A DNA stretch of 64,000 bases from an uncultured bacterium (GTDB lineage Bacteria > Margulisbacteria > WOR-1 > CAVSGV01), in NCBI GenBank assembly GCA_963699255.1, contig OY969425.1, positions 935,112-999,111 on the forward strand, given 5' to 3'. Each line of letters begins with the position of its first letter. Position 1 is the first letter of the stretch. The notes beneath the pieces were generated by a model. The model was not told the DNA's origin, did no database searches, and saw only the letters and a program-made list of their open reading frames with translations. Positions 1,134 through 17,759 of this stretch are shown here, in pieces. The position numbers and the translations under genes are program-made.

Positions 1134-1213
1134 ATGTTTACCCCCTTAATTATTCTAATGGATACTATCGGTTGTGTTCGGGAGTATAACACACAGATAC
1201 AATAGGCTCCATC

Positions 1214-1465: not shown

Positions 1466-1476
1466 CTTCTGACAAT

Positions 1477-2149: not shown

Positions 2150-2301
2150 TTTTTCACCTCCCTTATTTCTTGATCAAAACAATAAACATCATCGGGCTGA
2201 TCTCTATAAGCAAGCTCTTCTTTTGCTTTTTGTTTGCTCTGAGCTTCGATAATATATTTTTGAACGGTGGTTTCAATTATTTCATATTTCTTCATTTTCA
2301 T
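2146..2301 (-). CDS. Small hypothetical protein (51 aa) translationally coupled to ssb
   Basis: Not in the ORF track (below 60 aa). ATG preceded by RBS GGGGGTG; its stop TGA overlaps the ssb ATG (ATGA). Translation MKMKKYEIIETTVQKYIIEAQSKQKAKEELAYRDQPDDVYCFDQEIREVKK. Confidence 0.3.
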   Translation of the reverse strand: MKMKKYEIIETTVQKYIIEAQSKQKAKEELAYRDQPDDVYCFDQEIREVKK

Positions 2302-2332
2302 TTTATTTCACCCCCTTTCTTAGCTCTAACAA

Positions 2333-2557
2333 CTAAATAAGGCTATTTACTGTTTCCACCATGCTTTGAAGTTTCTCTGTTAGCTCCTCGAACTTCTTTC
2401 GCTTGTGTTTATCTTGGCCTTTCTGGTTCAGCTTTGCCTCCACCTTTACAAGATAATCGTAGAGAGCAAAGTGAAGAATCCCTAGTTCATCAAAGCCAAG
2501 CTCCACAGTCACATGATTTCTGTCAACCTTTAACAGCTTCATGTCTGCCTCCGACAA
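2333..2557 (-). CDS. Hypothetical protein
   Basis: 74-aa ORF in the same minus-strand gene string as ssb. Confidence 0.35.
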   Translation of the reverse strand: MSEADMKLLKVDRNHVTVELGFDELGILHFALYDYLVKVEAKLNQKGQDKHKRKKFEELTEKLQSMVETVNSLI

Positions 2558-2782
2558 TCATCATATTTCCTAAATGTAACTCGAATATTTGTCGTTAACG
2601 CAACAGATACTCATTTAGGTCTTCCACATCCCACACTTAAACCACTTGTCCAGAGCCACTTGTCCAGAAAGTGAGAATGTATCCGCAGTTTTCGCCGGCA
2701 CTGTAAATATTTTCATCTCTTACTCTCCTGTACAATCGATTACTTTGATTGCCCCTCATGTGGATCCTGCCCTTTTATGCGA

Positions 2783-3004
2783 CTATACCTGCGTTCCACA
2801 ATAGGCACAGACAATGACCGCTGGTTCAAAATCTTCACACGTCGTGTCTCCTACCTCCGCTATAAGTCGGCCGTCAACCTTGTGGAATTCGACCTCTTGC
2901 GTCACATGCGCAAAACCTCGTTCAAAGAACTTTTTTGTGTTCCCGCAGTTTTGACACGTGTAAACTGCCTCACTTTTCTTAAGCTCTTGCTTGGTTTCCA
3001 ACAT
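2783..3004 (-). CDS. Zinc-ribbon protein (two CxxC pairs)
   Basis: CQNCG...CAYCG motifs; likely start is the ATG at 3004 (M7 of the tracked ORF, which begins on GTG at 3022) preceded by RBS AAGGGGGTG. Confidence 0.5.
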   Translation of the reverse strand: MLETKQELKKSEAVYTCQNCGNTKKFFERGFAHVTQEVEFHKVDGRLIAEVGDTTCEDFEPAVIVCAYCGTQV

Positions 3005-3141
3005 CTTCACCCCCTTGTACACTTATTTTAATTTATTTTATTTGTATTCAAATCGCCTCACTCCGCTTAAGTTCCTGCTTGGCTTTCAGCATGTTTACCC
3101 TCTTGAATTTTTTATTTTATTTATTTTTCAAGCTCAATACG
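2968..3141. repeat. Tandem imperfect duplication (2 x ~87 bp) of the RBS/start region of the zinc-ribbon gene
   Basis: Unit 1 (2968-3055) and unit 2 (3056-3141) align at roughly 75% identity; unit 2 keeps an RBS-like AGAGGGT, an ATG and 14 codons before a stop. Confidence 0.6.
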
Positions 3142-3726
3142 CATATTCACACTCGAACCTCTGCCAGTTATCTCCTGCAACCATCCTAAATCGAGCTGTA
3201 CGCGATGTTCCTGCCGCAACAATATCCTTTTATATCCTGCGCCCCATCTCATCTTACAATCGATTTTCCACGGCCCCTATACCTTGTCCTGAATGTTTTC
3301 GCGTTCTTCTGATCATTTGCGCTCTTACTGACCGATTGCCCCTTTATAAAAATCCAGAAGGAACCTGTGATTTTCACCTGGGCCACGACAAATATTTTTC
3401 TGGAACGGCCCAGTAGTCTTAATATTTTATTTGCGGCTCCTTTCTTCAAACCTGATATTCATGCTCGAACCCCTCCAAAGTATCGCCGTATCCCGCTCCA
3501 AACAGATGTTTACGCTGGTTATAGCATCGAACAATATATTTACCTTCTCTCGAAACTAACGCCTTGTATAACTGATTTTTCAAGACCCAATACCTTGCTT
3601 TTCTCTTACTTTCACGGAAGAAGGCCTCTTTTCTTGTTCATGAACAAGTATCAAGGCCTATTATCATCCTTAGTTATTAACCAATGTATTAATACCCTTT
3701 TACATACTTTGTATTTATAACTTAAA

Positions 3727-4584
3727 CTATTTAATGTCCTCATTTAAATATTTTAAAGATTTAGGCCTTGCCGGTGGGATAGGGATCACTCTGGAAACTT
3801 TTGTGGCTATATGTTTATTAAAATGTTGCTCTCCCGTCTTACAGAGAATCAGTCCATGTTCAACAAGAGAGGTCAGAGTTGGGGTTATAATAGGCACGGA
3901 TAAATGAGCGTGTGTTGCAATAAGGGCTTGTGAAGCGATTATGAGATTGCTCGGTTTCAACCCCCTCTTTTTTTCAAGCTCAACGATTCCGCAGTACGCC
4001 TTGAGCTCGGCCAATTTCAGATACTTCCACCATCCCATATAGAAAAAAGTCGGTATACCCATTCCCCGCATTGATCTTTCTCCATTATTTTTCGGGAAGT
4101 GGCTTTTATAGTAAGGGCAGTTGTCTTTGCCTAGAATACAGTACTGGGATAGCGGGCCGTTACATCCATAAACCTTATAGCCTCCTTTAATTTTTTGGCC
4201 CTCAGCTCCCTGCTTATATGCTGATGGGACACGATACTTCAATTTTTGTGCATCTAATTTTTCTGGTAACCTCGAATTCCATTCATTTAACTCTTGCAAG
4301 GCCTTTTCCTCAGGAAATCCATACTCCCTAAATTCTGTTGCGAGAATGAAGGCTGAATCATTTCTTGAGCCCTTAACTGCCCCAGTTGCCCAAAGGTATG
4401 CCACACAAGGCTTAATGACATCACAGGACACATTCAGTACATTAGACATATTTCGAACATGCTGTAATGCCTCAATCTCAGTATCGGTGTTTATGGTCTT
4501 TTCAATCATTGTTTCTCTAGCTTTCATTACAAGGACAATCCTTTTTACGATTTTTCTCTCATTCGGGTTTGCATGTATTGACAT
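3727..4584 (-). CDS. Replication-associated protein with PriCT-1-like (primase C-terminal) domain
   Basis: 285 aa; GSRNDSAFILATEFREYGFPEEKALQELNEWNSRLPEKLDAQKLKYRVPSAYK resembles the PriCT_1 helical domain of plasmid/phage primase-replicases. Confidence 0.5.
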   Translation of the reverse strand: MSIHANPNERKIVKRIVLVMKARETMIEKTINTDTEIEALQHVRNMSNVLNVSCDVIKPCVAYLWATGAVKGSRNDSAFILATEFREYGFPEEKALQELNEWNSRLPEKLDAQKLKYRVPSAYKQGAEGQKIKGGYKVYGCNGPLSQYCILGKDNCPYYKSHFPKNNGERSMRGMGIPTFFYMGWWKYLKLAELKAYCGIVELEKKRGLKPSNLIIASQALIATHAHLSVPIITPTLTSLVEHGLILCKTGEQHFNKHIATKVSRVIPIPPARPKSLKYLNEDIK

Positions 4585-4936
4585 GTGTCAACCCAATATA
4601 GAAAGTTCACAGCCTTCGTTGTATGATAAAAATCTAGGCACCAACCTCAAGCCACTTACAGGCGGTTGTTATGCCTCTTATTATTTATAATATGTCCGGG
4701 CTGGGTACCAATACCTTTTCTCTCAATGAACCTCCTCCCGTGTCTCAGTTACCTAACACTTTTCATCACCCTGTCACTGAGGCATTATTTTTCGCCTCCC
4801 TCTTTTTACGTGTGAATAGTGCTTCCTTGATTTGGGCTAAGCGCTTGTGTCAAGGTTGCGAATTTCGACATCGATATCTTCCAGTTCCCCTTTTGAATAA
4901 ATCGTGTCATAACAACTTCCTCCCCGTATGATTATT

Positions 4937-5392
4937 TTAGTGATGGTGGAAGTTCCCCCTATCAATTCCCCTTAAAAAGTAATCGTTTTTATCACGGATT
5001 ATCCACTTGAATGCAAAATCCTCGGCTATAGCTATGTCATCTTCTTCTCCAATTTCAACTTTTTTAATATTTTCACCGGATATCATTCCAGGTAAATATG
5101 CCAATATCATCATTTCCTCTTCATTATCTTGTTGACCAGATAAATATTTTTGAGCCTTAAGTAAGACACCTGCCAATTTAGCCCGATCAAACACCGAAGC
5201 AAAAGGATACTCGGCGTAAATGTTATCTTGTACATAATATTTGTTTTCTATTATCGCTTCATTCAGGGTTTTACCATTATCCATTCTTATTAATACGTCC
5301 ATCAAAGTATTAAAAGCATATTCCCCCAAAGACCCTACATATTCTTTTGCCCCGTCTTCGTAAATCACATAGATGTCTTCCATTTCAACCAT
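4937..5392 (-). CDS. Hypothetical acidic protein
   Basis: 151-aa ORF directly downstream of the ParB-like gene on the same strand. Confidence 0.45.
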   Translation of the reverse strand: MVEMEDIYVIYEDGAKEYVGSLGEYAFNTLMDVLIRMDNGKTLNEAIIENKYYVQDNIYAEYPFASVFDRAKLAGVLLKAQKYLSGQQDNEEEMMILAYLPGMISGENIKKVEIGEEDDIAIAEDFAFKWIIRDKNDYFLRGIDRGNFHHH

Positions 5393-5414
5393 CTCCTTTG
5401 TTCACACCTATTAT

Positions 5415-6722
5415 TCAGCGCCCTCTTTTATGCACCCCTTTATCTTTACGTTTGATTAGCGCTTCCCTGATTAGCCCTAGGCGCGAAATGATTGTGCCAA
5501 GGTTTTGAATTTCAACATCGATAGCTTCTGATCCCCTCAGCAAATCGGGTATTATAATTTGCAAGTCTTGGTCGATAATCATGTCAAGAAACCTACAGAT
5601 CGAGCCGATTGCTTTTCTATAATTCTGATAAACCCAATCTTCGGAAGTTTTACGTGTGGTTTCCTTATCAGCTCCCGGCATTAACATCTGTGAATCTTTT
5701 TGACGGATAGCTCGAATGGCATTCACAACATTACTATAGCTACATTTCTCAAAGTCCATATTCTCCGCCAGCTTTATGCGTTGATCAGGGTTAAGTGATG
5801 TTAATTGACTCACGGCTTCTGCTGGCACCTGACCCTCTCGTATCAATTTCTGCCAATAAGCATCTAAGTCCAGTACTGCGAGCTTGTTTACGAGTGCTAG
5901 TTCAGATAATCCGGTGACTTTCATTGCTTTTTCGACCTCCAAACCATCGTTTGCAAAATTTGCAAGCTCAGTCCCGCCTTCGGTGGTTACCTCATCCTTA
6001 CCCAATGCCTGACAAATGCCCCTTGCTTCCTCAATAGGCGTAAGGTTATCCCTATGCATATTTTCGTGAATGGAAACTTGTTTTGCCTTTTCGTCAGAAT
6101 AATTCTGAACTATGGCCTGTATCGTTGTTAAGCCAGCGATTCCATGTGCCCTGAACCTTCTCTCGCCAGCAACAACCTCATAGCCATCCTTATTTGGCCT
6201 TACGATTATTGGCTCGATAAGCCCAATCCCTTTAATAGACTCCGCCAACTCCCGCAAACTGGTCTCAGTAAAGCTTCTCCGAGGTTGGACATCGCACGGC
6301 GTAATCTTTGATATGGGGATTTCATGAACTTGGGCGATGACCTTTTCATTGTCATTATGGGACTGCGGATGCAACTCCTTTTCAATGGCGCTCACAGTCA
6401 ACTTGTCTTCAATGATACGCTTAACCCATTTGTCCCTTTCAGCCTGATCTTCTAATGTAAGCAACAGCCGGCATTTGGCCACCCCCAAATGTTGCATCGA
6501 TTCAACATCAAGTTGCTCTACTACACGAATAAGCTCGTAGGCGTTGGAACGATGCATATCGACATCCTTTTCAAGATATTCCTCGAACGTCTTGTATTTT
6601 TCCTTATACAAGCGGCCGTCTCGTATCTGCTTCAACCTTATCCCAATCTCCCAGCTATTTTTCCGGATATCGTTCCGCAAACTTACAATCTCATCAGTCA
6701 ATTTCTTTAACATTGCCATCAT
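5415..6722 (-). CDS. ParB/Spo0J-like nuclease-domain protein
   Basis: 435 aa; IEPIIVRPNKDGYEVVAGERRFRAHGIAGLTTIQAIV is the ParB N-terminal box. Confidence 0.75.
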   Translation of the reverse strand: MMAMLKKLTDEIVSLRNDIRKNSWEIGIRLKQIRDGRLYKEKYKTFEEYLEKDVDMHRSNAYELIRVVEQLDVESMQHLGVAKCRLLLTLEDQAERDKWVKRIIEDKLTVSAIEKELHPQSHNDNEKVIAQVHEIPISKITPCDVQPRRSFTETSLRELAESIKGIGLIEPIIVRPNKDGYEVVAGERRFRAHGIAGLTTIQAIVQNYSDEKAKQVSIHENMHRDNLTPIEEARGICQALGKDEVTTEGGTELANFANDGLEVEKAMKVTGLSELALVNKLAVLDLDAYWQKLIREGQVPAEAVSQLTSLNPDQRIKLAENMDFEKCSYSNVVNAIRAIRQKDSQMLMPGADKETTRKTSEDWVYQNYRKAIGSICRFLDMIIDQDLQIIIPDLLRGSEAIDVEIQNLGTIISRLGLIREALIKRKDKGVHKRGR

Positions 6723-7085
6723 CTCCTTTTCTTGCTGAACCCGCTCACCTGATTTGCGTTAACCTTTAACCGCCTCCCGTATCTATATCAGGATTTGTGG
6801 CGAGGAATTTCTTCGGTAATTCTTTTGATGTTTCCGTATGGCTTAGGGACAGTGGAAATACCACATTAATTGAAACTGAAGAGAATCATAACGATGCTAA
6901 TGAGTAGGAGAAGTGATTGACAGTAATTATTTCCCAGCCACCCGTGGTACACCCAACAGCCAAGAATCTGTGTAATATCATGGGCTATTTGGACACCATA
7001 GAAAGAAGCCGAAACCCTTTATTTATAAAAGAATCTCGGCTTTTTCTTGTTAATATGCTACAATTTAATAACTGTAGCGGGCAGT

Positions 7086-7237
<152 letters not shown>

Positions 7238-7348
7238 TTTTAAATATTATCTGCTTTAGCAGTAAAAAAGAAGGCTTTTAAGAGATTAATCTTAAAGTTA
7301 AAGGTCTTTTTTGTTGCCATCTAACAAATATCTAATATATACATACAC

Positions 7349-7376
7349 TTGACAAAAATCTCAATTGTTGTATTAT
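7349..7376 (+). promoter_or_regulatory. Sigma-70-like promoter (TTGACA-N16-TATTAT) upstream of the DUF134 operon
   Basis: -35 TTGACA at 7349-7354 and -10 TATTAT at 7371-7376; ATG at 7408. Confidence 0.4.
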
Positions 7377-7407
7377 TAGCATATGCCAATAACTAATTGG
7401 AATATAT

Positions 7408-7914
7408 ATGCCAAGACCCTGTAAATGTAGATGGGTTAGAGGAAGACCTAATTCCAGGTACTTTAAGCCGCAAGGAATCCCGCTGTCATCACTTGAAGAA
7501 GTTGTTTTGACTGTTGATGAATATGAAGCTGTCCGACTTGCGGACCTTGACGGTATGTACCAGGAAGATGCTGCAAAGAAAATGAATATTTCAAGGCAGA
7601 CCTTTGGAAATATCATTGAGGCAGCGCGCAAGAAGATCGCGGATGCGATAGTGAACGGAAAAGCATTAAAGATAGAAGGAGGTGTTATTAAAATGATGGA
7701 AAAACAATTTATTTGTAATGATTGCAAAAATGAATGGACCATGCCCTATGAAACAGGAAGGCCCATGGAATGTCCAAAATGCAAGAGCAAGAACATCCAC
7801 CGTGCTCCTCAGGATAGAGGTTGTAACCTTTCTGGCGGCAGGCAGGGAAGAGGGATGAGAGGCAATGGCAGGGGATGCGGCAGAGGATCTGGAATGGCTC
7901 AGACTGCAAAATAA
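7408..7914 (+). CDS. DUF134-family DNA-binding protein with C-terminal zinc ribbon
   Basis: MPRPCKCRWVRGRPNSRYFKPQGIPLSSLEEVVLTVDEYEAVRLADLDGMYQEDAAKKMNISRQTFGNIIEAARKKIADAIVNGKAL is the conserved DUF134 core; CNDC...CPKC ribbon follows. Confidence 0.75.
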   Translation: MPRPCKCRWVRGRPNSRYFKPQGIPLSSLEEVVLTVDEYEAVRLADLDGMYQEDAAKKMNISRQTFGNIIEAARKKIADAIVNGKALKIEGGVIKMMEKQFICNDCKNEWTMPYETGRPMECPKCKSKNIHRAPQDRGCNLSGGRQGRGMRGNGRGCGRGSGMAQTAK

Positions 7915-7935
7915 TAAAAGGAAGGTGAGCAAGTT

Positions 7936-8301
7936 TTGAAAATATGTATACCAACAACAACTAAAGATGGCATGTCCGCAAAAGTATATGAACACTTTGG
8001 AAGCGCGCCATATTTCACGATCGTTGATATTGAAAATGCTGCTATCGAAATATTAGATAACACTAATTCGCATCATATGCATGGCATGTGCCAGCCGATG
8101 GATGCTTTAAACGGCAAAAAGATCGATGCCGTGATAAGCGGGGGAATGGGGGCAAGAGCTGTTAATAAATTGAACCAAGGCGGGATAAAAGTATTGCGCT
8201 CAAATGGCCTTACGGTAGAAGATACAGTCAAGAACTATAAAAGCGACAAGCTAAAACCTATAACCATAGAAAGCGCATGCATGGACCATTCTTGTCATTA
8301 G
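7936..8301 (+). CDS. NifX/NifB-like (dinitrogenase FeMo-cofactor-binding domain) protein
   Basis: 121 aa; MKICIPTTTKDGMSAKVYEHFGSAPYFTIVDIEN...AVISGGMGARAVNKLNQGGIKV matches the Nitro_FeMo-Co fold family. Confidence 0.7.
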   Translation: MKICIPTTTKDGMSAKVYEHFGSAPYFTIVDIENAAIEILDNTNSHHMHGMCQPMDALNGKKIDAVISGGMGARAVNKLNQGGIKVLRSNGLTVEDTVKNYKSDKLKPITIESACMDHSCH

Positions 8302-8313
8302 GAATAGGGCTTT

Positions 8314-9318
8314 ATGAAAAAACCCTTTGCCAGTCCAGATAAACATGTATTGAGGTATTTTCCCTCATTTATTACCGTTTCTGCCGGCAGGGTTGTAAAC
8401 ATAACGGAGCCTTCTCTTACTTCATGTCCTCTAGCCTGCCATTTCTTCAAAGACTTTAAGAACAGCGGGAAACCGCACAGTAAACCAATAAAACAGATCA
8501 TTAAAAAAGCTATAGAGTCACAAATAAAGGAATATGGATTCTATACAAGTAAAAGACTGTTGCTTATTAGAGATATTACAACACCTTATGGCGCATCTGA
8601 AATATTAATGTGCACCCTGAAAAAGAAAGAGATCGATGCGGCTGTTATTGTCTGTGATGGAGCAGGGACGGTTATCACGGATAACGGAGACCTTGTACAG
8701 GGGATAGGGGCAAAGATGAACAGTTTATTCTTAACCTCACCCATAAAAAAAACTATATCCCGAATAAATAAGCTTGGCGGTCACGTAGTATCAGAAAGTG
8801 CCGCTATCGATCAGATAAAAGGAGTAGAGAGAGCTATACAAATGGGATATAAAAATATAGCTGTAACTGTAAATGGTTATAGTTCTTCAGACAGCTTAAT
8901 AAAGATACGGAAACTCGAGAAAAAACATAAGGTAAGAACAACTATTCTCGTCGTCTGCACAACTGGGGTTAATAATAGAATTGTGGCGAAAATAAAGAAA
9001 TATGCGGACATTGTCTGGAGCTGTGCTTCTCAGGAAATAAGAAAGGATATCGGAGCTGTTGCGTTGCTGCAGATATCAAAACCGATACCAGTATTTGTAT
9101 TGACCGAGAAAGGTTTGGGATTGGCCGCTGCATATGAGCATGGAGGATCTATCCTTAGGTCATTGGACATTAAAAAACAATATTTGATCTCAAATGAGAC
9201 TGGTGGGCGGCCAATAAAACTCGGGTTCCTTAATGCATTCTTATGTGAGAAGAAGCTGCCGGTGTTATCAAACACACGAACAATGCATTGTTATAAGAAC
9301 AATAGGATGGGCAATTAA
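8314..9318 (+). CDS. Conserved hypothetical protein
   Basis: 334-aa ORF tightly packed between the NifX-like and MBL genes; no family recognised with confidence. Confidence 0.5.
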   Translation: MKKPFASPDKHVLRYFPSFITVSAGRVVNITEPSLTSCPLACHFFKDFKNSGKPHSKPIKQIIKKAIESQIKEYGFYTSKRLLLIRDITTPYGASEILMCTLKKKEIDAAVIVCDGAGTVITDNGDLVQGIGAKMNSLFLTSPIKKTISRINKLGGHVVSESAAIDQIKGVERAIQMGYKNIAVTVNGYSSSDSLIKIRKLEKKHKVRTTILVVCTTGVNNRIVAKIKKYADIVWSCASQEIRKDIGAVALLQISKPIPVFVLTEKGLGLAAAYEHGGSILRSLDIKKQYLISNETGGRPIKLGFLNAFLCEKKLPVLSNTRTMHCYKNNRMGN

Positions 9319-9321
9319 ACA

Positions 9322-10029
9322 ATGGACCTAACCCTTGTAGCCGAAGGCTCAACCGGGTGGCAGAGGTTCATTAAACACTGGGGGATTTCCTTTATTGTTG
9401 GGGATGTGTTATTTGATACTTTCGGCAGAGATGTTGTTTTCCGGAAGAATATCAAAAAGTTCAAGATAGACATTTTAAAGATCAAAAAAGTGGTGATCTC
9501 CCATGATGACTGGGACCATATAGCAGGATTGGGAAATTTCCTTGTTCGTAAACCCGATGTCCCGGTATACATATGTAAGAATTCCGCTCAAAGCCTTAAA
9601 GAGATCATAAAGAAAAGCGGCAATCCGTTACATGAGGTTGATAAGCTTACAGAGATATCTCCTGATATATTTTCTCTGGGCGAGCAGCGCGTAAAAACCG
9701 CTCATGGAGTAGTGTGTGAGCAGGCATTGGCGGTAAGATCCGATAAAGGGCTATCAATAATAACCGGCTGCGCACATCCGGGGATCGTTAATATAGTTAA
9801 GCTTGCCATTAGGGAACTCAAAGAAGCTCCTTATCTGGTTTGCGGCGGTTTTCATTTGAAGGATGATTCTCAGGATGAGGTTATGAAGGTGATATACGAA
9901 CTTGGCGGGCTTGGCGTCAAGAAAGTGATACCACTACACTGCACAGGCAAGGTCGCTCAGAGATCGTTTAGATCGATATACGCTGATAATTGCATCGATA
10001 TTTCTGCAGGGGATCGTTTGGATATCTAA
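9322..10029 (+). CDS. MBL-fold metallo-hydrolase
   Basis: ISHDDWDH metal-binding motif and general beta-lactamase-fold organisation. Confidence 0.65.
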   Translation: MDLTLVAEGSTGWQRFIKHWGISFIVGDVLFDTFGRDVVFRKNIKKFKIDILKIKKVVISHDDWDHIAGLGNFLVRKPDVPVYICKNSAQSLKEIIKKSGNPLHEVDKLTEISPDIFSLGEQRVKTAHGVVCEQALAVRSDKGLSIITGCAHPGIVNIVKLAIRELKEAPYLVCGGFHLKDDSQDEVMKVIYELGGLGVKKVIPLHCTGKVAQRSFRSIYADNCIDISAGDRLDI

Positions 10030-10068
10030 GCTTATCCGCCCTCTATCTAACAACTCAACTCTACCGAG

Positions 10069-10097
10069 TTGACATAAATGCTCATATATCGTATAAT
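10069..10097 (+). promoter_or_regulatory. Perfect-consensus sigma-70 promoter (TTGACA-N17-TATAAT) for the ArsR gene
   Basis: -35 at 10069-10074, -10 at 10092-10097; ATG at 10107 only 9 nt after the -10 box and no visible RBS, implying a leaderless or near-leaderless transcript. Confidence 0.5.
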
Positions 10098-10106
10098 CTA
10101 GATATT

Positions 10107-10367
10107 ATGATATATGATTATGATGGAATCGCAAATAAGCTGAAGGCGCTCGGACATCCGGTAAGGCTGAAAATAGCCAAGGGGCTGTTTAAAGACGGAT
10201 GTAACGTTAACAAGATCGTGGAAGAGCTAAAACTGCCGCAATCGACGATCTCGCAGCATATCACGATATTAAAGAATGCCGGGATAATAGCGGGGGTAAG
10301 GAACGGGGTAAAGATATGTTATAAGGTAGTTGACAGGTTTACTCAACAATTATTAAAGGGGGTATGA
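10107..10367 (+). CDS. ArsR/SmtB-family transcriptional regulator
   Basis: LKALGHPVRLKIAKGL...CNVNKIVEELKLPQSTISQHITILKNAGII is the ArsR HTH. Start moved to the internal ATG at 10107 because the tracked ORF start (9990) overlaps the promoter. Confidence 0.75.
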   Translation: MIYDYDGIANKLKALGHPVRLKIAKGLFKDGCNVNKIVEELKLPQSTISQHITILKNAGIIAGVRNGVKICYKVVDRFTQQLLKGV

Positions 10368-10370
10368 ATA

Positions 10371-10694
10371 ATGGGTACAGTAAAAAATATAACAGATAAC
10401 GATTTTGATGCGGAAGTTGGAGCCAGTAAAGGCATTACATTGGTGGATTTTTGGGCTCCGTGGTGCGGACCGTGCAAAATGATGGCGCTGGTATATGAAA
10501 AGGCAGCTGAGAAATTCAATAAAATAAAGTTCTGCAAGATCAACACCGATGAAAACCCTATTAAACCAGGGCAGTCGGATATATCTGGTATCCCATGTAT
10601 CGTGGTTTATAAAGACGGGAAAGAGATCGACCGCCTTATAGGCTTTCGCGAGCAGAAGAATTTTGAATCTGCACTGATGCGGTTAGATAAATAG
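10371..10694 (+). CDS. Thioredoxin
   Basis: 107 aa; WAPWCGPCKMMA active site with thioredoxin-fold spacing. Confidence 0.85.
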   Translation: MGTVKNITDNDFDAEVGASKGITLVDFWAPWCGPCKMMALVYEKAAEKFNKIKFCKINTDENPIKPGQSDISGIPCIVVYKDGKEIDRLIGFREQKNFESALMRLDK

Positions 10695-10703
10695 GATCTA
10701 ATT

Positions 10704-10883
10704 ATGCCAAAAGTAGTTAACTATCTTTGTCCCCAGAATCATCCATGTCCATGCGTGCCTGTATGCCCAGTAAAGGCTATAACCCAGAAGGGCTATGATG
10801 CTCCTGTCATAGATATGTCCATATGCACAAAATGCGAGAAATGCGTAAAAGTATGCCCTATGGGAGCGGTCCAAAAGGACTGA
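10704..10883 (+). CDS. Small ferredoxin-like Cys-rich protein (59 aa)
   Basis: Not in the ORF track; translation MPKVVNYLCPQNHPCPCVPVCPVKAITQKGYDAPVIDMSICTKCEKCVKVCPMGAVQKD contains CxxCxxCxxxCP. Confidence 0.45.
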   Translation: MPKVVNYLCPQNHPCPCVPVCPVKAITQKGYDAPVIDMSICTKCEKCVKVCPMGAVQKD

Positions 10884-10891
10884 TATAAACC

Positions 10892-11458
10892 ATGCATTTA
10901 TTTGATACAAAAAGGCTGGAGCATCTGGACGATCCGCAAAGAACAGCGCAGATCCCCGTGAAAAAGATCGCCCTGGAACTGGGACTGAAAGACGGAATGT
11001 CGGTGGCAGATATTGGGTGCGGCTCCGGTCTTTTCAGCTATGCTTTTGCTGAATATGTTAATCCTCACGGCAAACTGGTCGGTTTTGATATTCAGCAGGC
11101 GTGCATCGACCATTGTGAGAAGAAAAAAACCCCAGCGCATAAGCATGTTTCATTTGTTTTGAATGGATCGGACAGGATAGGAGCAAAGGATGGCAGTTTT
11201 GACGCGGCTGTAATGATAGTGGTGGCGCATGAACTGCCCGAGCCTCAAAAATTCTTTCATGAAGTAGCGAGGATATTAAAGCCGGGAGGCAGGCTGGCGC
11301 TTATAGAATGGCAGATGGCGCAGACAAAGAACGGCCCCGACCTGAGCGAGCGGATAGCTCCTGATACACTTGAGAAGCTTCTCAATGAAGCCGAGTTCAG
11401 TATTGTTAAAAATGAAGTTCCCAGTGAAAACCATTATATGATCATTGCTCAAAAATAG
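10892..11458 (+). CDS. Class I SAM-dependent methyltransferase
   Basis: VADIGCGSGLFS motif I; 188 aa. Confidence 0.75.
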   Translation: MHLFDTKRLEHLDDPQRTAQIPVKKIALELGLKDGMSVADIGCGSGLFSYAFAEYVNPHGKLVGFDIQQACIDHCEKKKTPAHKHVSFVLNGSDRIGAKDGSFDAAVMIVVAHELPEPQKFFHEVARILKPGGRLALIEWQMAQTKNGPDLSERIAPDTLEKLLNEAEFSIVKNEVPSENHYMIIAQK

Positions 11459-11479
11459 AATATTCAAGGGAGGTGACAT

Positions 11480-11680
11480 ATGGTAAATAATATGGGTTTA
11501 ATGGACAGGGTAATCAGGGTCATACTGGCTTTAGTCGTTATAGCACTATATTGTCTGAAGATGATATCCGGACTAGCTGCCATTATACTTGGGGTGATTG
11601 CCGCAATTTTTATTGTCACAGGTTGTATAGGTTATTGTCCGCTATATCAGTTAATCGGGATCTCCTCAAAGGGAAAGTAA
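11480..11680 (+). CDS. DUF2892-family small membrane protein
   Basis: 66 aa; RVIRVILALVVIAL...GCIGYCPLYQLIGIS matches the YgaP-like DUF2892 pattern. Confidence 0.65.
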   Translation: MVNNMGLMDRVIRVILALVVIALYCLKMISGLAAIILGVIAAIFIVTGCIGYCPLYQLIGISSKGK

Positions 11681-11686
11681 TAATAA

Positions 11687-11736
11687 GGGCTATGTTTTGG
11701 AAATGATCTCATCACATAGCCCTTTCGTTTGTTTTT
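11687..11736 (+). terminator. Putative intrinsic terminator after the DUF2892 gene
   Basis: Stem GGGCTATG...CATAGCCC with a 20-nt loop followed by TTTCGTTTGTTTTT. Confidence 0.35.
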
Positions 11737-11870
11737 CCCAATCTAACATTCACCTGCTGTATCTGACGTTTCTGAGGTTATAATCGCCCGTCTTGTAGCT
11801 GGTTTATAAGGAATTTGGCTTATTTTCAGGGAAATAGTGATAGTAGGGCGGGTAAGTTCCAACCAAGACA

Positions 11871-11958
11871 AAATCCCTCCCCCGCTACCTCTTTTATGCT
11901 TCAGTTACGTAGTAGCCAAGGTTCTCCCGCCAAAGGCGGGAAAATCCTACCCCCGCTA
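11871..11958 (+). repeat. Composite att-like repeat copy B: variant 17-mer, 43-bp block, hairpin, 17-mer
   Basis: AAATCCCTCCCCCGCTA at 11871-11887, shared block at 11888-11930 (one or two mismatches to copy A), AAATCCTACCCCCGCTA at 11942-11958. Confidence 0.7.
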
Positions 11959-12025
11959 TTTAACATGATATCATCGAGGGGCGGATCTTAAGATCGTTCC
12001 GCTAAAGTCAAAGACCGCTTGTTTG

Positions 12026-12664
12026 TTACTTATAAAGTATTGATATTCTTGGATAATATTGAGCATTACTATAATCCCAAAGATTGGTCCTGTTGATCGT
12101 TGATGGACCAGATGTACCATATGGGAATACTTTGACCCCATTGTTCGCGGCCGCACCATCGAACCAATCCCGGACAAGCGATGTTACATCGAAATAATTC
12201 CATCCCACAGCAGTGCTGTTTATATAAGAAGCGTTAACCGAACTGATGGAGGGCTCATTGGTCGCGGATATGGCGGCCTTTTGCCAAGCGCCGGTCACCT
12301 GAGTGATAGTTGTTGTACAGCTGGCATCAAAGGTGGTTATATATATGTTCAGGGAAGCGCTTTCTATCGAAACACCCGAGGGGATCTGCGGCATATAGAA
12401 TTGAATATAAACCTCTTCTTTTAATGAAGTGCCACCACCAGCATAGGAATACCATAGATATTCTAAAGTTCCCGTCCCATATGTTGTACCATAATCAACA
12501 ATTCCGCTACTATTGCTAAAACTAGTGAATGCGCTTTGCTCTACGGTAGCAGTTGCAGTGTGCGTCGGCGGGACCGTTGTATTATTGGAGCCTGTCGGGT
12601 TCCCGCAACCGGATACAACAAGTAATAATGCGAACAGTAAAGAAACAAAGAAAGCCTTTTTCAT
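12026..12664 (-). CDS. Secreted lipoprotein, unknown function
   Basis: Signal peptide with lipobox LLVVSGCG; Thr/Ser-rich linker; start taken at M13 of the tracked ORF. Confidence 0.55.
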   Translation of the reverse strand: MKKAFFVSLLFALLLVVSGCGNPTGSNNTTVPPTHTATATVEQSAFTSFSNSSGIVDYGTTYGTGTLEYLWYSYAGGGTSLKEEVYIQFYMPQIPSGVSIESASLNIYITTFDASCTTTITQVTGAWQKAAISATNEPSISSVNASYINSTAVGWNYFDVTSLVRDWFDGAAANNGVKVFPYGTSGPSTINRTNLWDYSNAQYYPRISILYK

Positions 12665-12911
12665 TTTTAACGCCTTTATATTAGGCTGATTTGTTTGCAA
12701 TGATGCCGCAAGCTGATTTATATTTTATCATTTTTATCTTATATTGATATAAAATTGATTCCGTCATATCCCCGACACCTGTCCGACCGTTGCGCCGCCG
12801 AATATTAGGACCGGCTTCCCCTAATTTTATTCTAATAATATATTAATGTATTTTTAACCGTTACAATGTAATATGTTTATGGCTTGAAAGATCCCCGATA
12901 AGGAGGAAATC

Positions 12912-13847
12912 ATGGAAAAGAAAATGGTCTTTTTGGTCCTTCTCCTGGCTATGGTCGCATTGGCAGGGTGCGGTTCACAATCCACTTCAACTTCTTCAAG
13001 TTCCGGAACTTCATTAAATGACGCGATAAACTCTGACCCTGGCCTTTTTGAAGCAGGCAGTTCAGACCCGAGTACCGGTGACAACACTTCAAGCGTTGGT
13101 TCCCCGTTCAGCATCATGATGCCCCCTTATCATAGATGTAATTCCTGGTACAGGGCATTTACTGATATAAGCCCGATAACGATCACTATCATAACGCAAG
13201 AAGCTTCATCATCCGCGGTGATCGAAGTGACCAGAGAGGCTGACGGGATATTATATGGCAGGATGGCTTCATCAACTGAAGCTGCCACCTCAGAAGCCTT
13301 CACTCAGGACTTCACGCGGTATATCACTCTTGTTGCATCTAACGATGCCTGGCGGATAAAGAAGGTGACTCAGGGTATCGCTCGATCAACGGCAAATACT
13401 TCCAGCACATCCATGACATCGGACGTCACCATCGATTCCGTATCCATATATGACGTAACCTCCGGCATAACCTTTGAAATTACTTCAGCTCCATCAGCCG
13501 AAGGGCCATGGATCGATTATGAAACCATCGCGACGACAGAACCTGGCCACAATTTAGTTGTAACGGCTGTTGTTGAACCTAATGCTCACGGGCAACCTTT
13601 GGTGTTCATTTGGCCGAGAATGGATGAAGCCCTAGCCCTATCGCCCTTATTTCACAGGCGTCAATTCCCCTCTCCCACCGGCTCTACTTACACAACATCA
13701 ATTACGGTACCAAGTGCAAGTGTTGTTCACAAAGAAAAAAAGCGGATGATCATAGGCGCTTTTGACACGGGGACTCTGGCTTCGGGCGAGGCGCTGGGAG
13801 CCTACGATTTTACGAGCTGGCATATTCCAGTTAAAGTAGTTAAATAA
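12912..13847 (+). CDS. Secreted lipoprotein, unknown function
   Basis: Signal peptide MEKKMVFLVLLLAMVALAGCGS with lipobox; Ser/Thr-rich linker. Confidence 0.55.
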   Translation: MEKKMVFLVLLLAMVALAGCGSQSTSTSSSSGTSLNDAINSDPGLFEAGSSDPSTGDNTSSVGSPFSIMMPPYHRCNSWYRAFTDISPITITIITQEASSSAVIEVTREADGILYGRMASSTEAATSEAFTQDFTRYITLVASNDAWRIKKVTQGIARSTANTSSTSMTSDVTIDSVSIYDVTSGITFEITSAPSAEGPWIDYETIATTEPGHNLVVTAVVEPNAHGQPLVFIWPRMDEALALSPLFHRRQFPSPTGSTYTTSITVPSASVVHKEKKRMIIGAFDTGTLASGEALGAYDFTSWHIPVKVVK

Positions 13848-13909
13848 AAACTCACAGGAACAGGCCTGGATATGATACAATCCTCCCCGGGTAAAAAGGA
13901 GCGTGCGAC

Positions 13910-14959
13910 ATGAAAAACAGGCGGTATGTTCCGGTCATAGCAGCTCTCCTGGTCCTCTGTTCAATGGCTTTCCTTTACGGCTGCGGATCGGCTTCTACAA
14001 GCGGCGGAGGAGGCTCAAGCACCAGTCCCTGGATATATGTCGGCGCATCGATCGACAACGCCGTATCGATAATTGACGGCTCGAACAATACTCTAGCTGG
14101 AACGATAGAACTCGCGCCAAGGAAGCCGTATCATATCGCGGCATCCGGGGACGGGAAGCATCTCTATGTTTCCACGGACAGCCTTGAAGTCGTCGTGATA
14201 GACACTGCCACCAATACGATATCCGGCCTTATCACTTCAGACGCCGTTACGCAGTCTTACGGCATGACGGTTTCCGCGAACGGCAAGTTCCTTTATTTCA
14301 CCAGATTCAATGACAGCAAGCTCGTGAGAGCCTACCTGAAAAGCTCTCCTGTAACTTGCGAGGTATCGAGCACCACCGCCACCGGGACGCCTCTGGGGAT
14401 CGTTCTGGCCGATGATGATGAAAAATGCATCGTTGGCGAATATCAAAACCTTGAATTTTTCAAAAATACCACATTCACTATTGACGGCACGCTGAATTAT
14501 CCGGGCTGCGACCTGTATTCCGTGGCCGTTAAGAACGGATCGGTCTATGTTCCGCGAACAAGCGGAGCTTATGACGTCGTGATCGCTGATCCGACCAACG
14601 AAGTTCAGCTCGGCCTGATAACGCCCGAAGGCTCGACCTTTTTATTGGGGATAGTTTCCATTCCCGGGAAGAACAAGCTCTATGTAAGCCAGGATACGAC
14701 CCCCGGCAAGATAAATATCATTGACACGTCCCCCGTACCGACGTTTGAAGCTACCATGATAACCGGGGAGGCGGTTAGCAGCATGCCGGTCCCCACATAC
14801 ATGGCGGCTACGGCTGACGGAAGATACGTATATGTTTATGATACGTCAACTCACGATCGGGTCTGTGTCGTTGACACCAGCACGGATAAGGTCATAAAAA
14901 CTATACCCGTCAATAAAGGCGCGGGTATTTATAATAATCCAGTAATTATCTATAAATAA
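13910..14959 (+). CDS. Lipoprotein with YVTN-type beta-propeller repeats
   Basis: Lipobox LYGCGS; repeated units such as YVSTDSLEVVVIDTATNTI and YVYDTSTHDRVCVVDTSTDKVIKTIPV. Confidence 0.6.
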   Translation: MKNRRYVPVIAALLVLCSMAFLYGCGSASTSGGGGSSTSPWIYVGASIDNAVSIIDGSNNTLAGTIELAPRKPYHIAASGDGKHLYVSTDSLEVVVIDTATNTISGLITSDAVTQSYGMTVSANGKFLYFTRFNDSKLVRAYLKSSPVTCEVSSTTATGTPLGIVLADDDEKCIVGEYQNLEFFKNTTFTIDGTLNYPGCDLYSVAVKNGSVYVPRTSGAYDVVIADPTNEVQLGLITPEGSTFLLGIVSIPGKNKLYVSQDTTPGKINIIDTSPVPTFEATMITGEAVSSMPVPTYMAATADGRYVYVYDTSTHDRVCVVDTSTDKVIKTIPVNKGAGIYNNPVIIYK

Positions 14960-15073
14960 CTTACTCCAATGCCGATCGTTGCCGCGGGAAGATAATTGCT
15001 GATGGGCTCCGCGATCGAATATTGCTTTACGGGACGGAATAATATAATATTACGGCGAAAGGGTGATCATCAC

Positions 15074-15952
15074 ATGAAACGCTTTATATTAAAATATATT
15101 TCCTGCATCGTTCTTGTCGCCTTTGTTTCCGTCTGCCTTATAAATCCCTCTCCCGTACGCGCGGCGGCCAACACCGGGACGCTGAAGATATTCTCCGAGG
15201 TAAAGGGCATTGACCTGTTTATTGACGAGCAGCCGCAGGGCAAGGACAAGGCCGAAATAAACGACGTCCAGGTCGGCAGCCATTACGTAAAAGCGGTAAA
15301 AGACGGCGCGACCATATACAGCGAGCTTATAACCGTTGCCGCCGGAGCGACCACCACGATACTTATCAAGGACACGGGCCAGGTGAAAGAGAAGGTCCTG
15401 GAGAGCAAATACAAGGAGCAGCAGGAATACAAGAGCAAGAAGATCGACATACTCCTGAGCAAAGGCATGCAGACCGTGGGGACGGCCTACACAAGCAGCA
15501 ATTATTTCCCGGGATACTACTCGATATTCGGCTCCGGCTGGACCACTTCTTCTTCGTCGACGGCGTATGAGACCACCGACTGGAAGATAATACAGGGAGG
15601 CGTGCAGGAGATATCCGATGTCCAGTTCGCGTCGCTGGTGAACGACAGTGACGCGTTGAAAGTGAACAAGGATGCCTGGGATACTTACAATAATAATGTC
15701 GTCATATTCGGGGTCATAGGTTTGGTCGGAATAGTTGCCACTGTTGCAGGATTGGGCACCGCCGGAGATTCCGGCGCCGCAGTGGCTGCCGTCGGTATCG
15801 CTGCCGCAGTAATAGGCTGCGGCGTATGTTTGGGTGCTAAGGAACCGAGCGGGCATCTGACAAGCCCGGGCGATGCCGCGAAAAAAGCATATGAGTACAA
15901 CCAGGGCCTGAAAAAGCAGCTTGGACTGCCCGAGGATTACGAGCCGCAGTAA
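15074..15952 (+). CDS. PEGA-domain protein with C-terminal transmembrane segment
   Basis: Signal peptide starting MKRFILKY (M27 of the tracked ORF); TGTLKIFSEVKGIDLFIDEQPQGK...VQVGSHYVKAVKDG resembles a PEGA domain; Gly/Ala-rich TM near the C-terminus. Confidence 0.5.
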   Translation: MKRFILKYISCIVLVAFVSVCLINPSPVRAAANTGTLKIFSEVKGIDLFIDEQPQGKDKAEINDVQVGSHYVKAVKDGATIYSELITVAAGATTTILIKDTGQVKEKVLESKYKEQQEYKSKKIDILLSKGMQTVGTAYTSSNYFPGYYSIFGSGWTTSSSSTAYETTDWKIIQGGVQEISDVQFASLVNDSDALKVNKDAWDTYNNNVVIFGVIGLVGIVATVAGLGTAGDSGAAVAAVGIAAAVIGCGVCLGAKEPSGHLTSPGDAAKKAYEYNQGLKKQLGLPEDYEPQ

Positions 15953-15954
15953 AG

Positions 15955-16035
15955 TAGAGATCAGAGACTGGAGACCAGAGATCGGAATAAGATCCAGGAT
16001 TTCTGATTTCTAATCTCTGATCTCTAATCTCTAAG
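15955..16035. repeat. Low-complexity imperfect palindrome (AGAGATC / GATCTCT motifs)
   Basis: AGAGATCAGAGA at the left and its reverse complement TCTCTGATCTCT at the right; shares the 19-mer CTCTGATCTCTAATCTCT with 30805-30823. Confidence 0.6.
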
Positions 16036-16043
16036 GATTTCTC

Positions 16044-16856
16044 ATGAACAAAAGCCCTGAACATAAATGGAACGCCGCCGACTACGCCGGTAATTCTTCG
16101 GCGCAGGCCAGGTGGGGGCGCGATCTTATCGCCAAACTCGAACTGCGGGGGGGCGAATCCGTCCTGGACATCGGCTGCGGCGACGGAAAGCTTACCGCCG
16201 CGCTTGCAAAGCAGCTTCCCAAAGGTTTCGTTCTGGGTGTGGATAATTCTATAGAGATGATCCGGTTTGCCAGGAAAAATTTCCCCTCTGATGGATTCCC
16301 CAACCTTTCTTTCAAGGTATGCGACGCGCGCAAGTTGAACTTTTCAAAAAAGTTCGACCTTGTGGTTTCTTTTTCCACTCTTCATTGGGTGAAAGACCAC
16401 ATGCCGGTACTCAAGAGAATTCTGCTCAGCCTTAAACCGGGAGGCAAGGCGCTCCTGCAGTTCGGAGGAAAAGGCAATGCCGCAGATATTTTAGCCGTTA
16501 CCGATGATGTCATTGCTGGCGGCAAATGGAAAAAACATTTCCGCCGTTTTATCTTTCCCTGGCATTTTTATGAGCCGAAAGAATACGGCGTTTGGGTAAA
16601 GGAGGCCGGTTTAAAGCCGAAGCGGATCGAGCTTGTTGAAAAAGACATGGTCCAGGAGGGCAAGGAAGGCCTTATCGGCTGGTGCAGGACGACGTGGCTG
16701 CCTTATGTCAGCCGCGTTCCGGCAGGTTTGCAGGATGAATTCCTGGCCGAGGTCGTTGATCGATATCTGGAGCGTTATCCGCTGGATGAAAACGGCCGCG
16801 CCCATGTTAAAATGCAGAGGCTGGAAGTGGAAGCATATAAAAAAAGTAAGAAGTGA
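16044..16856 (+). CDS. Class I SAM-dependent methyltransferase (Tam-like)
   Basis: W.AADY...Q..WGRDLI...VLDIGCGDGKLT pattern as in trans-aconitate methyltransferase-like enzymes. Confidence 0.7.
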   Translation: MNKSPEHKWNAADYAGNSSAQARWGRDLIAKLELRGGESVLDIGCGDGKLTAALAKQLPKGFVLGVDNSIEMIRFARKNFPSDGFPNLSFKVCDARKLNFSKKFDLVVSFSTLHWVKDHMPVLKRILLSLKPGGKALLQFGGKGNAADILAVTDDVIAGGKWKKHFRRFIFPWHFYEPKEYGVWVKEAGLKPKRIELVEKDMVQEGKEGLIGWCRTTWLPYVSRVPAGLQDEFLAEVVDRYLERYPLDENGRAHVKMQRLEVEAYKKSKK

Positions 16857-17530: not shown

Positions 17531-17649
17531 CCCGTGGATAGTAGCAGCAATTTTAATTCCGCATATTTTATTCGTATGTAGAGCAAAATCGTGTAGTTAT
17601 TTTTGACAAGAGTAGTAATTCCCGACAGCAGTTCAAATTATACTTATAA

Positions 17650-17759
17650 CTTCTAACTTCTTCCTTTTTCCTTGTCCCTTGCTCCCATCTCACATCTCTC
17701 ACCTCTTCTCCTATCCCGATCCGAAAGGCACCGTATGGGAAATGAGAAAGATCGATTGA
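17650..17759 (+). repeat. Direct repeat R (~110 bp), partner of 16885-17002
   Basis: Same sequence family and same orientation as repeat L on the other side of the ORF6N gene. Confidence 0.7.

Follow-up and report, generated by a model that had tools for sequence, protein, structure and literature searches.

A two-unit gene island around a DUF2099 protein in an uncultured WOR-1 bacterium: a possible acquired variant of an orange-protein-type metallocluster neighbourhood

Introduction

What is the role of a short gene island in which metal-cluster-binding and thiol-redox proteins are encoded side by side, in two units that each have a regulator of their own? The question is raised by a stretch of 64,000 nucleotides (contig OY969425.1 of assembly GCA_963699255.1, positions 935,112 to 999,111 of the forward strand; hereafter the window) from an uncultured bacterium of the Margulisbacteria lineage WOR-1 (CAVSGV01), which carries at positions 7408-11680 an island of nine genes, one of them encoding a protein of the family DUF2099. 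An earlier note, made from the sequence alone, likened the arrangement to metal(loid)- or redox-stress cassettes. Based on the gene families and on their conservation elsewhere, we give about even chances to a reading of the island as a compact and probably acquired form of an orange protein (ORP)-type metallocluster neighbourhood built around DUF2099, and the handling of metal–sulfur clusters under thiol-redox control appears more likely than arsenic detoxification.

How iron–sulfur (Fe–S) and complex metalloclusters are made in strict anaerobes is not well understood, nor has the ORP complex a settled function. DUF2099, likewise, is a "methanogenesis marker" without a known role, which in bacteria is tied to Orp3/Orp4-like ATPases, NifX-like proteins, NifU and a metallo-β-lactamase (MBL)-fold hydrolase. 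The more general and more useful result of this work is that DUF2099 is probably FrhB-like and is embedded in a bacterial ORP/NifU/MBL neighbourhood, and the two together provide a testable handle on DUF2099, i.e., on a cluster, a flavin and a redox partnership with the ATPases. Being a natural minimal version, the island could show which of the parts can function when the ATPases are absent; as no more than a decaying fragment carried by a mobile element, it would be of little importance.

Gene content of the island

The island consists of nine intact reading frames, all on the + strand and arranged as two units (Table 1), with 3-21 nt between genes within each unit and 77 nt between the units. 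Unit 1 encodes DUF134, Nitro_FeMo-Co, DUF2099 and MBL-fold proteins, and unit 2 encodes ArsR, thioredoxin, a ferredoxin, an S-adenosylmethionine (SAM)-dependent methyltransferase and a DUF2892 protein. A second, independent assembly, contig L001 (4714 bp) of Logan ERR10755942, agrees with window positions 7211-11924 at 99.98% identity. Every gene named in the earlier note is present at its place and on its strand, the two units are each headed by their own regulator as it had described, and the family assignments bear out its mixture of metal-cluster-binding and thiol-redox domains. Two points differ: the 334-aa protein that it had left unassigned belongs to DUF2099, a named family of unknown function, and a ninth gene, for the 235-aa MBL-fold protein, had been omitted.

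Table 1. Features of the island and its borders (positions in the window)
Feature	Position	Strand	Evidence and remarks
Truncated tRNA-Met(CAU)-like remnant	7074..7128	+	8-bp acceptor-like stem and T arm; dG -20 kcal/mol, z -3.1
Direct repeat, left copy	7111..7251	+	Families D1/D2, 92-93% identity; longer than the right copy by about 40 nt
Promoter-like site P1, TTGACA-16-TATTAT	7349..7376	+	11/12 consensus positions; 32 nt 5' of the DUF134 gene
DUF134 (UPF0251) putative DNA-binding regulator	7408..7914	+	PF02001 8.3e-25
Single-domain Nitro_FeMo-Co protein (NifX/NafY/orange-protein-type, "Di-Nase")	7936..8301	+	PF02579 1.1e-22
DUF2099 / methanogenesis marker 8 family, 334 aa	8314..9318	+	PF09872 2.6e-75
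MBL-fold protein, TM1679/7DCK type, 235 aa	9322..10029	+	Motif SHDDWDH; weak Lactamase_B match; PDB relatives
Promoter-like site P2, TTGACA-17-TATAAT	10069..10097	+	12/12 consensus positions (perfect)
36-bp palindrome, 18-nt arms, no spacer	10082..10117	.	Inverted repeat I5, 83% complementary
ArsR/SmtB-family repressor, 86 aa	10107..10367	+	NF033788 71 bits (cut-off 55); PF01022 1.4e-10
Thioredoxin, WCGPC active site	10371..10694	+	PF00085 1.2e-28; TIGR01068 97.4 bits (cut-off 96.8)
Ferredoxin, 59 aa, 8 Cys	10704..10883	+	Fer4, Fer4_7 and LdpA_Fe-S-bd near 1e-7
Class I SAM-dependent methyltransferase, 188 aa	10892..11458	+	Methyltransf_11/25/31 matches
DUF2892 / YgaP-like two-helix membrane protein, 66 aa	11480..11680	+	PF11127 1.1e-17; GYCPLY motif
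Terminator-like hairpin, 11-bp stem, T-rich tail	11685..11736	+	dG -18.7 kcal/mol, z -4.0; ends unit 2
Direct repeat, right copy	11871..11972	+	92-93% identical to the left copy

The DUF134 protein possesses a C-terminal CxxC...CxxC (Cys4) zinc ribbon followed by a Gly/Arg-rich tail, and gives weak Pfam matches to Sigma70_r4_2 and to HypA/zinc-ribbon domains. Over its first 92 aa, it shares 77% identity with the product of the DUF134 gene that heads the DUF2099 cluster of another locus (L074); a fused DUF5320 was considered for the tail and ruled out, as no similarity was found. The Nitro_FeMo-Co protein carries the His/Cys-rich motifs HHMHGMC and CMDHSCH, and its relatives in the PDB are TM1816, TM1290, MTH1175 and the Desulfovibrio gigas ORP (2wfb, 4.7e-5). 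The MBL-fold protein matches 7dck (2.8e-32) and TM1679 (3h3e, 6.9e-27), both of which are uncharacterised; a literature search for papers on these two structures gave nothing usable.

The DUF2099 protein

The window protein matches PF09872 over residues 19-269 (251 residues) with 253.4 bits against a gathering cut-off of 25, and scores 226.4 bits on TIGR03275 (methan_mark_8), just below the cut-off of 232.7. The family is small, with 364 proteins found by profile search of 1.84 billion representatives, and the 468 homologues collected belong for the most part to Candidatus Omnitrophota and further uncultured anaerobes. Its members are of about 330 aa in bacteria and about 286 aa in archaea, with some longer fusions; the window protein is of the bacterial type, which differs from archaeal methanogenesis marker protein 8 (Mmp8) in having a C-terminal extension. 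In an alignment of 20 diverse members, four cysteines (C38, C114, C215 and C237) are invariant.

All 20 of these members also show, in the same place, a weak Pfam match to FrhB_FdhB_N, the best E-value being 1e-3. The FrhB family used for comparison comprised F420-reducing hydrogenase/dehydrogenase beta subunits, HCAR and Fsr; DUF2099 shares 16-22% identity with it, with Pfam scores below the gathering cut-off and only part of the protein aligning. A distant FrhB-like fold is nevertheless supported by two methods, and together with the invariant cysteines this suggests that DUF2099 is probably a remote FrhB-like, cluster-carrying redox protein, its cofactor binding being predicted from this likeness. 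Literature searches on DUF2099, methanogenesis marker protein 8, Mmp8 and DUF134/DUF5320 found nothing relevant, and Mmp8 goes unmentioned in a paper on the complex that activates MCR.

The host is not a methanogen but a diderm bacterium, which has sigma-54, the secretin of a type IV pilus, and an RND pump together with its outer-membrane factor. For its enolase (window 47086-48381), the best named match is labelled Candidatus Kuenenia sp., and other close matches lie at 90-94% identity. The best named relatives of its DUF2099 protein are from Omnitrophota, at about 60% identity, and the island may have a lineage that differs from that of its host.

The DUF2099 neighbourhood in other bacteria

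Eighty DUF2099 loci were taken from one-genome-per-species contigs of Omnitrophota, Elusimicrobia, Actinomycetota, Spirochaetota, Clostridia and other groups, and their six-frame open reading frames were searched with the window proteins and with the neighbours in locus L002. Neighbours were counted on the same strand and within 6 kb at the 42 loci that have at least 6 kb of sequence on both sides. The most constant are ATPases with CbiA and Fer4 domains, i.e., Orp3/Orp4-like proteins (37/42), followed by an MBL hydrolase of the window's kind (34/42), a SAM methyltransferase (32/42), Nitro_FeMo-Co proteins (29/42), NifU, detected as NifU_N (26/42), and DUF5320 (25/42). Standalone small ferredoxins of less than 100 aa are found at 16 of these loci, Fur at 15, thioredoxin at 10, and DUF134 and DsrE-like sulfur-carrier genes at five each. 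These counts indicate that most of the island families recur together. The MBL gene of the window and that conserved beside DUF2099 elsewhere encode proteins with 40% identity over their full length. Comparison of near (0-5 kb) with far (6-10 kb) occurrences per 10 kb shows that the linkage is local for the MBL (0.72 vs 0.08), for NifU (0.52 vs 0.06) and for Nitro_FeMo-Co (1.01 vs 0.44).

In three Omnitrophota loci, the homologue lies in one long same-strand cluster, which begins with Fur, DUF5320, two Nitro_FeMo-Co genes, a peroxiredoxin or ferritin gene in some cases, and a SAM methyltransferase; continues with two CbiA/ParA ATPases with 4Fe–4S domains, DUF2099, NifU_N and in some cases Mrp/ParA and Zip; and ends with a 236-aa MBL, at times with a small ferredoxin, DsrE and FeoAB. 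Two Actinomycetota loci (L039 and L071) read DUF134, Di-Nase, ATPase, ATPase, DUF2099, MBL, which is the order of unit 1 of the window plus the ATPases. A further locus, L079, begins with Zip, DUF134, DUF5320, two Di-Nase genes, thioredoxin and a 57-aa ferredoxin, and after intervening genes goes on with methyltransferase, two ATPases, DUF2099, NifU and MBL. Genes of Fe–S assembly (NifU and Mrp, beside the Orp3/Orp4-like ATPases) and of iron homeostasis (Fur, FeoAB, Zip and ferritin) in the neighbourhoods of the relatives point to iron and Fe–S metabolism.

Elements of unit 2 are found there as well. The Omnitrophota locus L048 carries, 5.4 kb downstream of DUF2099 and on the same strand, the order ArsR (49% identical to that of the window), thioredoxin, Zn ribbon, DnaJ, methyltransferase. 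As an observation in its own right (positions 11151-16258 of this locus), genes for a methyltransferase, for two proteins of the radical SAM type and for a 616-aa protein in which two CbiA+Fer4 ATPase modules are fused come after DUF2099 and before this ArsR series. The earlier note would have taken its reading as refuted if the methyltransferase and the 334-aa protein had matched unrelated housekeeping families, with no co-conservation of the cluster; that refutation fails, as DUF2099 is not a housekeeping family and the cluster is co-conserved, with recurrence seen both among the DUF2099 loci and among the contigs with ArsR–thioredoxin operons described below.

Comparison with known systems

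In Desulfovibrio, the ORP complex includes Orp3 and Orp4, which are MinD-like proteins with [4Fe–4S] clusters, and Orp8, which is a Di-Nase protein, and MrpORP transfers Fe–S clusters to these proteins (PMC6345978). The ORP cluster of D. vulgaris and D. alaskensis (Orp3, Orp4, Orp5, Orp8 and MrpORP) and the neighbourhood of the island are both anaerobe-specific; the island has a single-domain Nitro_FeMo-Co protein of the Orp8 type, and the neighbourhoods of its relatives carry two MinD-like 2x[4Fe–4S] ATPases that resemble Orp3/Orp4, as well as an Mrp/ParA-type ATPase. However, the window contains neither Orp3/Orp4 nor MrpORP, and only the Di-Nase part of the MrpORP model NF041136 finds a match in it (46.9 bits vs a cut-off of 450). 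The island apparently uses DUF134 and a sigma-70-type promoter, whereas the ORP cluster uses sigma-54 and an enhancer-binding protein, and the neighbourhood is centred on DUF2099 and an MBL, which are not listed as ORP components in PMC6345978.

Two other kinds of system share features with unit 2. As in ars operons, a repressor of the ArsR/SmtB family heads the operon, a palindrome lies over the promoter, and the gene set includes a SAM methyltransferase and a thioredoxin; in contrast to ars operons, the island has no arsenate reductase, efflux pump, ArsA, As(III) cysteine triad or ArsM cysteines. As in BigR and YgaV–YgaP modules, a two-cysteine repressor of the ArsR family is combined with a DUF2892 (YgaP-type) membrane domain, whereas a rhodanese and an MBL of the persulfide-dioxygenase type are missing and the cysteines of the repressor lie elsewhere. 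The archaeal Mmp8 proteins of about 286 aa differ from the island protein also in that they sit in unrelated gene contexts.

Several observations weigh against an ORP-type reading of the island. A tblastn search of the 64-kb window found no CbiA+Fer4 ATPase of the L002 kind, no NifU and no Mrp, i.e., none of the most constant partners of DUF2099, and the DUF2099 homologue that is closest to the window protein, at 81% identity, still has an ATPase gene on one side and nifU on the other. If the reading holds, the island is therefore a reduced and rearranged derivative; since the ATPase gene and nifU still flank the closest homologue, it could also be a decaying fragment. ArsR occurs near DUF2099 at only 2/42 loci, and DUF2892 at none (0/42, and 0/79 in the wider set). 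Class I methyltransferases are nearly as frequent far from DUF2099 as near it (0.97 near vs 0.75 far per 10 kb), and thioredoxin shows no enrichment (0.12 vs 0.17), so the linkage of these two is looser and rests on individual loci; the methyltransferase of the window is moreover only 25-33% identical to those of the neighbourhoods, which are at most its putative orthologues. Five bacterial DUF2099 loci have none of these neighbours, and the archaeal Mmp8 loci L090 and L091 (Methanothrix and Halobacteriota; 286-287 aa) lack ORP-like, NifU and MBL neighbours, which makes the association a trait of a bacterial subgroup rather than of the whole family. An ORP-like context was thus looked for and not seen in the two archaeal loci examined. 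For the ORP complex, too, the only role given is "putatively cell division" (PMC6345978). Finally, no neighbourhood of this type with DUF2099 in it has been studied, and the literature search on this family gave no paper.

Unit 2 and its relatives

The ArsR protein passes the generic metalloregulator model NF033788 and no equivalog model. Its two cysteines, C32 in the alpha-3 region and C70 in the wing, are both conserved in the L048 homologue; the cysteines are shifted in the homologue of L049, and that of L074 has none. The nearest solved structures are PagR, 8qkf and BigR. The 59-aa ferredoxin combines one canonical CxxCxxCxxxCP motif with one atypical motif.

The clade of the methyltransferase is tiny: eight relatives lie at 65-100% identity, after which identity drops to 37%, and the only invariant cysteines among them are C75 and, within the SAM motif, C43. 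Its nearest structure in the PDB is 3dh0, an uncharacterised Aquifex enzyme. A scan of metagenome contigs confirmed no close relatives. An ENA contig shows ArsR, thioredoxin, a 60-aa ferredoxin and the methyltransferase in the same order as the window, and a JGI contig shows ArsR, thioredoxin, an uncalled gap, methyltransferase, DnaJ, Nitro_FeMo-Co and a 66-aa gene, no ferredoxin being called there. A closely related genome, with an enolase that is 93% identical, has a 67-aa gene after that for the methyltransferase, and neither ArsR nor thioredoxin; a gene of 66-67 aa thus follows, or lies close to, the methyltransferase homologue in two related contigs. As judged by gene order, the operon of unit 2 is conserved in one other contig and in part in a second, where it is linked, this once, to a NifX-like gene.

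Both units lie behind promoter-like sites of the sigma-70 kind. The perfect consensus promoter reported by the earlier note ahead of the ArsR gene (P2) was recovered, and simple arithmetic gives about 0.002 such 12/12 matches expected by chance per 5.4 kb. The total number of promoter-like sites in the region is 13, vs 14.9 in shuffled sequences, and is not in excess, so only the two near-perfect, well-placed sites carry weight. The 36-bp palindrome, unique in the window, overlaps the -10 hexamer of P2 and the arsR start codon, which makes it a candidate ArsR operator. The arsR homologue of L048 has a TTGACA-16-TAATAT promoter that is overlapped by an AT-rich inverted repeat, and ATATCGTA is common to this repeat and the window palindrome; the shared layout weakly supports autoregulation by ArsR. 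The terminator-like hairpin that closes unit 2 was missed by the consensus scan because of its long loop.

Proposed working of the two units

The roles of the ORP proteins, together with the Fur, Feo, Zip, ferritin and NifU genes of the relatives, lead us to propose that unit 1 holds or processes metal–sulfur clusters. What was read directly is which genes are there and in what order, their families, the promoters and the palindrome, and how far the neighbourhood is conserved; from these we infer every biochemical step, as follows. Unit 1 would supply a small protein that binds clusters, a cysteine-rich protein of FrhB-like fold and a metallo-hydrolase, and the DUF134 protein would control it from P1. 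Unit 2 would be a self-repressed operon that provides thiol and low-potential reductants, the latter as a 2x[4Fe–4S] ferredoxin, plus a methyltransferase; its ArsR would sit on the 36-bp palindrome over the P2 -10 box and leave the DNA upon oxidation of its two cysteines or upon metal binding by them. Thioredoxin and ferredoxin would then keep the cysteine ligands and the clusters of the Di-Nase and DUF2099 proteins reduced, and these two proteins may hold, transfer or repair Fe–S or other metal-sulfide clusters. Orp3/Orp4-like ATPases and a NifU scaffold would need to be supplied from elsewhere in the genome.

A much bolder reading, to which we give little credence, extends this scheme to the whole bacterial DUF2099 neighbourhood. 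It would be an undescribed machine by which anaerobes build, store or repair metal–sulfur cofactors, regulated by Fur or DUF134, with Orp3/Orp4-like ATPases, NifX-like proteins, NifU, the TM1679-type MBL and the SAM methyltransferase as its parts and DUF2099 as an FrhB-derived redox subunit. The island would then be a mobile accessory kit of carrier protein, DUF2099, hydrolase and its own reductant supply, placed under a thiol-sensing ArsR and spread by cis-mobilisation between tRNA-derived att-like repeats.

Alternative readings

A response module for reactive sulfur (sulfide, persulfide or sulfite) is one alternative, in which a BigR- or YgaV-like ArsR senses persulfidation through its two cysteines, the outputs are thioredoxin, DUF2892 as the transmembrane domain of a YgaP rhodanese and a thiol/sulfide methyltransferase, and the MBL is brought in by read-through or co-regulation. 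It draws on the BigR model as the second-best NCBIfam match of the window ArsR, on BigR as its third-closest solved structure, on the retention of both cysteines in L048, on DUF2892 as the YgaP-like transmembrane family, and on the DsrE-like genes, which adjoin the MBL gene in two mapped loci. The BigR score (52 bits), however, is far below the cut-off of 155. A BigR-type sensing site was also rejected at the level of cysteine positions: the residues of BigR (3pqj) opposite Cys32 and Cys70 are not cysteines, and the cysteine of its LVCTL motif lies opposite a lysine. The island encodes no rhodanese domain; its MBL is of the TM1679/7DCK type, with persulfide dioxygenase absent from its PDB relatives; and the lack of DUF2892 across the wider set of DUF2099 loci counts here, too. 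A dioxygenase would also be of little use to a strict anaerobe. We regard a sulfur-response module as unlikely, though as the strongest of the competitors. The detoxification of a metalloid or selenium, which is close to what the earlier note had in mind, appears less probable still and is the one we rate lowest. Here ArsR would sense arsenite, antimonite or selenite, and the methyltransferase would volatilise the metalloid with thioredoxin and ferredoxin as reductants. The ArsR score is above the cut-off of the metalloregulator subfamily, the methyltransferase finds its best NCBIfam matches in models of ArsM-fusion selenoproteins (58-61 bits), an algal ArsM (5evj, 9.5e-7) is among its PDB matches, and an HMA-domain gene adjoins the operon in the JGI relative. 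However, scores on ArsM-type models are only 33-61 bits vs cut-offs of 263-575 and cover only the generic SAM-binding core (45 vs 263 on the arsenite methyltransferase model PRK11873, 33 vs 500 on NF040538); the ArsM cysteine set is missing, the clade having no invariant cysteines other than C43 and C75, and a protein of 188 aa leaves no room for an arsenic-binding C-terminal domain. An identification of the enzyme as ArsM, or as ArsM-like as the earlier note had asked, was dropped on these grounds. In the alignment, the CVCDLC As(III) site of ArsR alpha-3 is absent and reads KDGCNVNKI, with one Cys, and the Pfam and NCBIfam searches found no ArsC, ArsB/Acr3, ArsA or ArsM among the island genes, in agreement with the earlier note on arsenate reductase and efflux genes. 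Since the families of the island recur instead beside Fe–S and iron genes, and the partner families indicate Fe–S metabolism, the comparison with a metal(loid)-stress cassette is not supported.

The island may, alternatively, have no joint function, i.e., two unrelated operons may have been juxtaposed by recombination, with unit 1 as a remnant that has lost its ATPases and NifU. The absence of these partners here, while they flank the closest DUF2099 homologue, would be explained, as would the low-GC surroundings rich in mobile-element genes, the bracketing tRNA-fragment direct repeats with no integrase in sight, and the methyltransferase that stands without ArsR or thioredoxin in the closely related genome. 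A decaying fragment is harder to reconcile with nine intact, closely spaced frames and two near-consensus promoters. Moreover, thioredoxin, small ferredoxin, methyltransferase and ArsR–thioredoxin pairs recur in or beside DUF2099 clusters of other phyla, and the JGI relative ties ArsR, thioredoxin and methyltransferase to a Nitro_FeMo-Co gene. Decay without joint function is thus a reading that we hold improbable, a little less so than metalloid detoxification.

Genomic setting

The island, with a GC content of 0.41-0.43, belongs to a low-GC stretch that spans about 21 kb (window 1-21 kb) and has values of 0.38-0.45, about 0.40 overall, vs about 0.50 in the rest of the window. It is bracketed by direct repeats, the left one of which adjoins a tRNA-Met(CAU)-like remnant that keeps the anticodon loop CUCAUAA and lacks the D arm. 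ARAGORN called no tRNA in the remnant or the repeats, and Rfam gave no match even at E <= 1. The left repeat contains two copies of a tRNA 3'-end 17-mer, AAATCCTACCCCCGCTA, plus a hairpin, TCCCGCCAAAGGCGGGA; the 17-mer, which reads like a tRNA from T loop to 3' end, occurs in four copies in the repeats vs 0.01 expected. The 34-nt repeat core has no exact match in the metagenome and viral collections. The Logan contig L001 starts and ends at the repeats, which fits branching of a k=31 de Bruijn graph at these positions; a circular form, or one present in multiple contexts, would also be possible.

Genomic islands associated with tRNA genes and cis-mobilizable elements (CIMEs) are known to carry cargo between direct repeats of a tRNA 3' end, with low GC and adjoining plasmid- or phage-type genes, and the island is like them in all of these respects. 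In contrast to them, no integrase was found, i.e., no recombinase domain among open reading frames of at least 120 aa scanned in 1-30 kb, and the 64-kb window holds no intact target tRNA, its only tRNA being a tRNA-Leu at 46245. The repeats also differ from a simple att core in being composite, about 100-140 nt long and with two tRNA-end copies each. The resemblance to a scarred tRNA-associated island or a cis-mobilizable element is no more than suggestive. The low GC, the single-stranded DNA-binding (SSB), PriCT and ParB-like genes and restriction–modification genes on the flanks, and the tRNA-fragment repeats together indicate that the island was probably acquired horizontally.

Upstream, at window positions 1-6722, lie genes for the SSB protein, for a primase-like protein of the PriCT_1 type and for a ParB-like protein of 435 aa. 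Lipoprotein-like genes are found downstream of the island, and positions 17006-19344 encode a protein like ORF6N anti-repressors and a restriction–modification pair made up of a BglII-type endonuclease and an N6/N4 DNA methylase. Outside the repeats, but in the same low-GC stretch, are a second class I SAM methyltransferase (16044-16856, 270 aa), 27% identical to that of the island, and a second, canonical MBL-fold protein (21505-22185, 226 aa).

Two further observations concern the rest of the window. At 40869-45587, 30 kb from the island, a gene for sigma-54 (RpoN) is followed by two enhancer-binding proteins of the response-regulator type. In an open reading frame of 621 aa at 31788-33653, an amino-acid permease is fused with a P-II nitrogen-regulatory domain at its C terminus, apparently an unusual combination.

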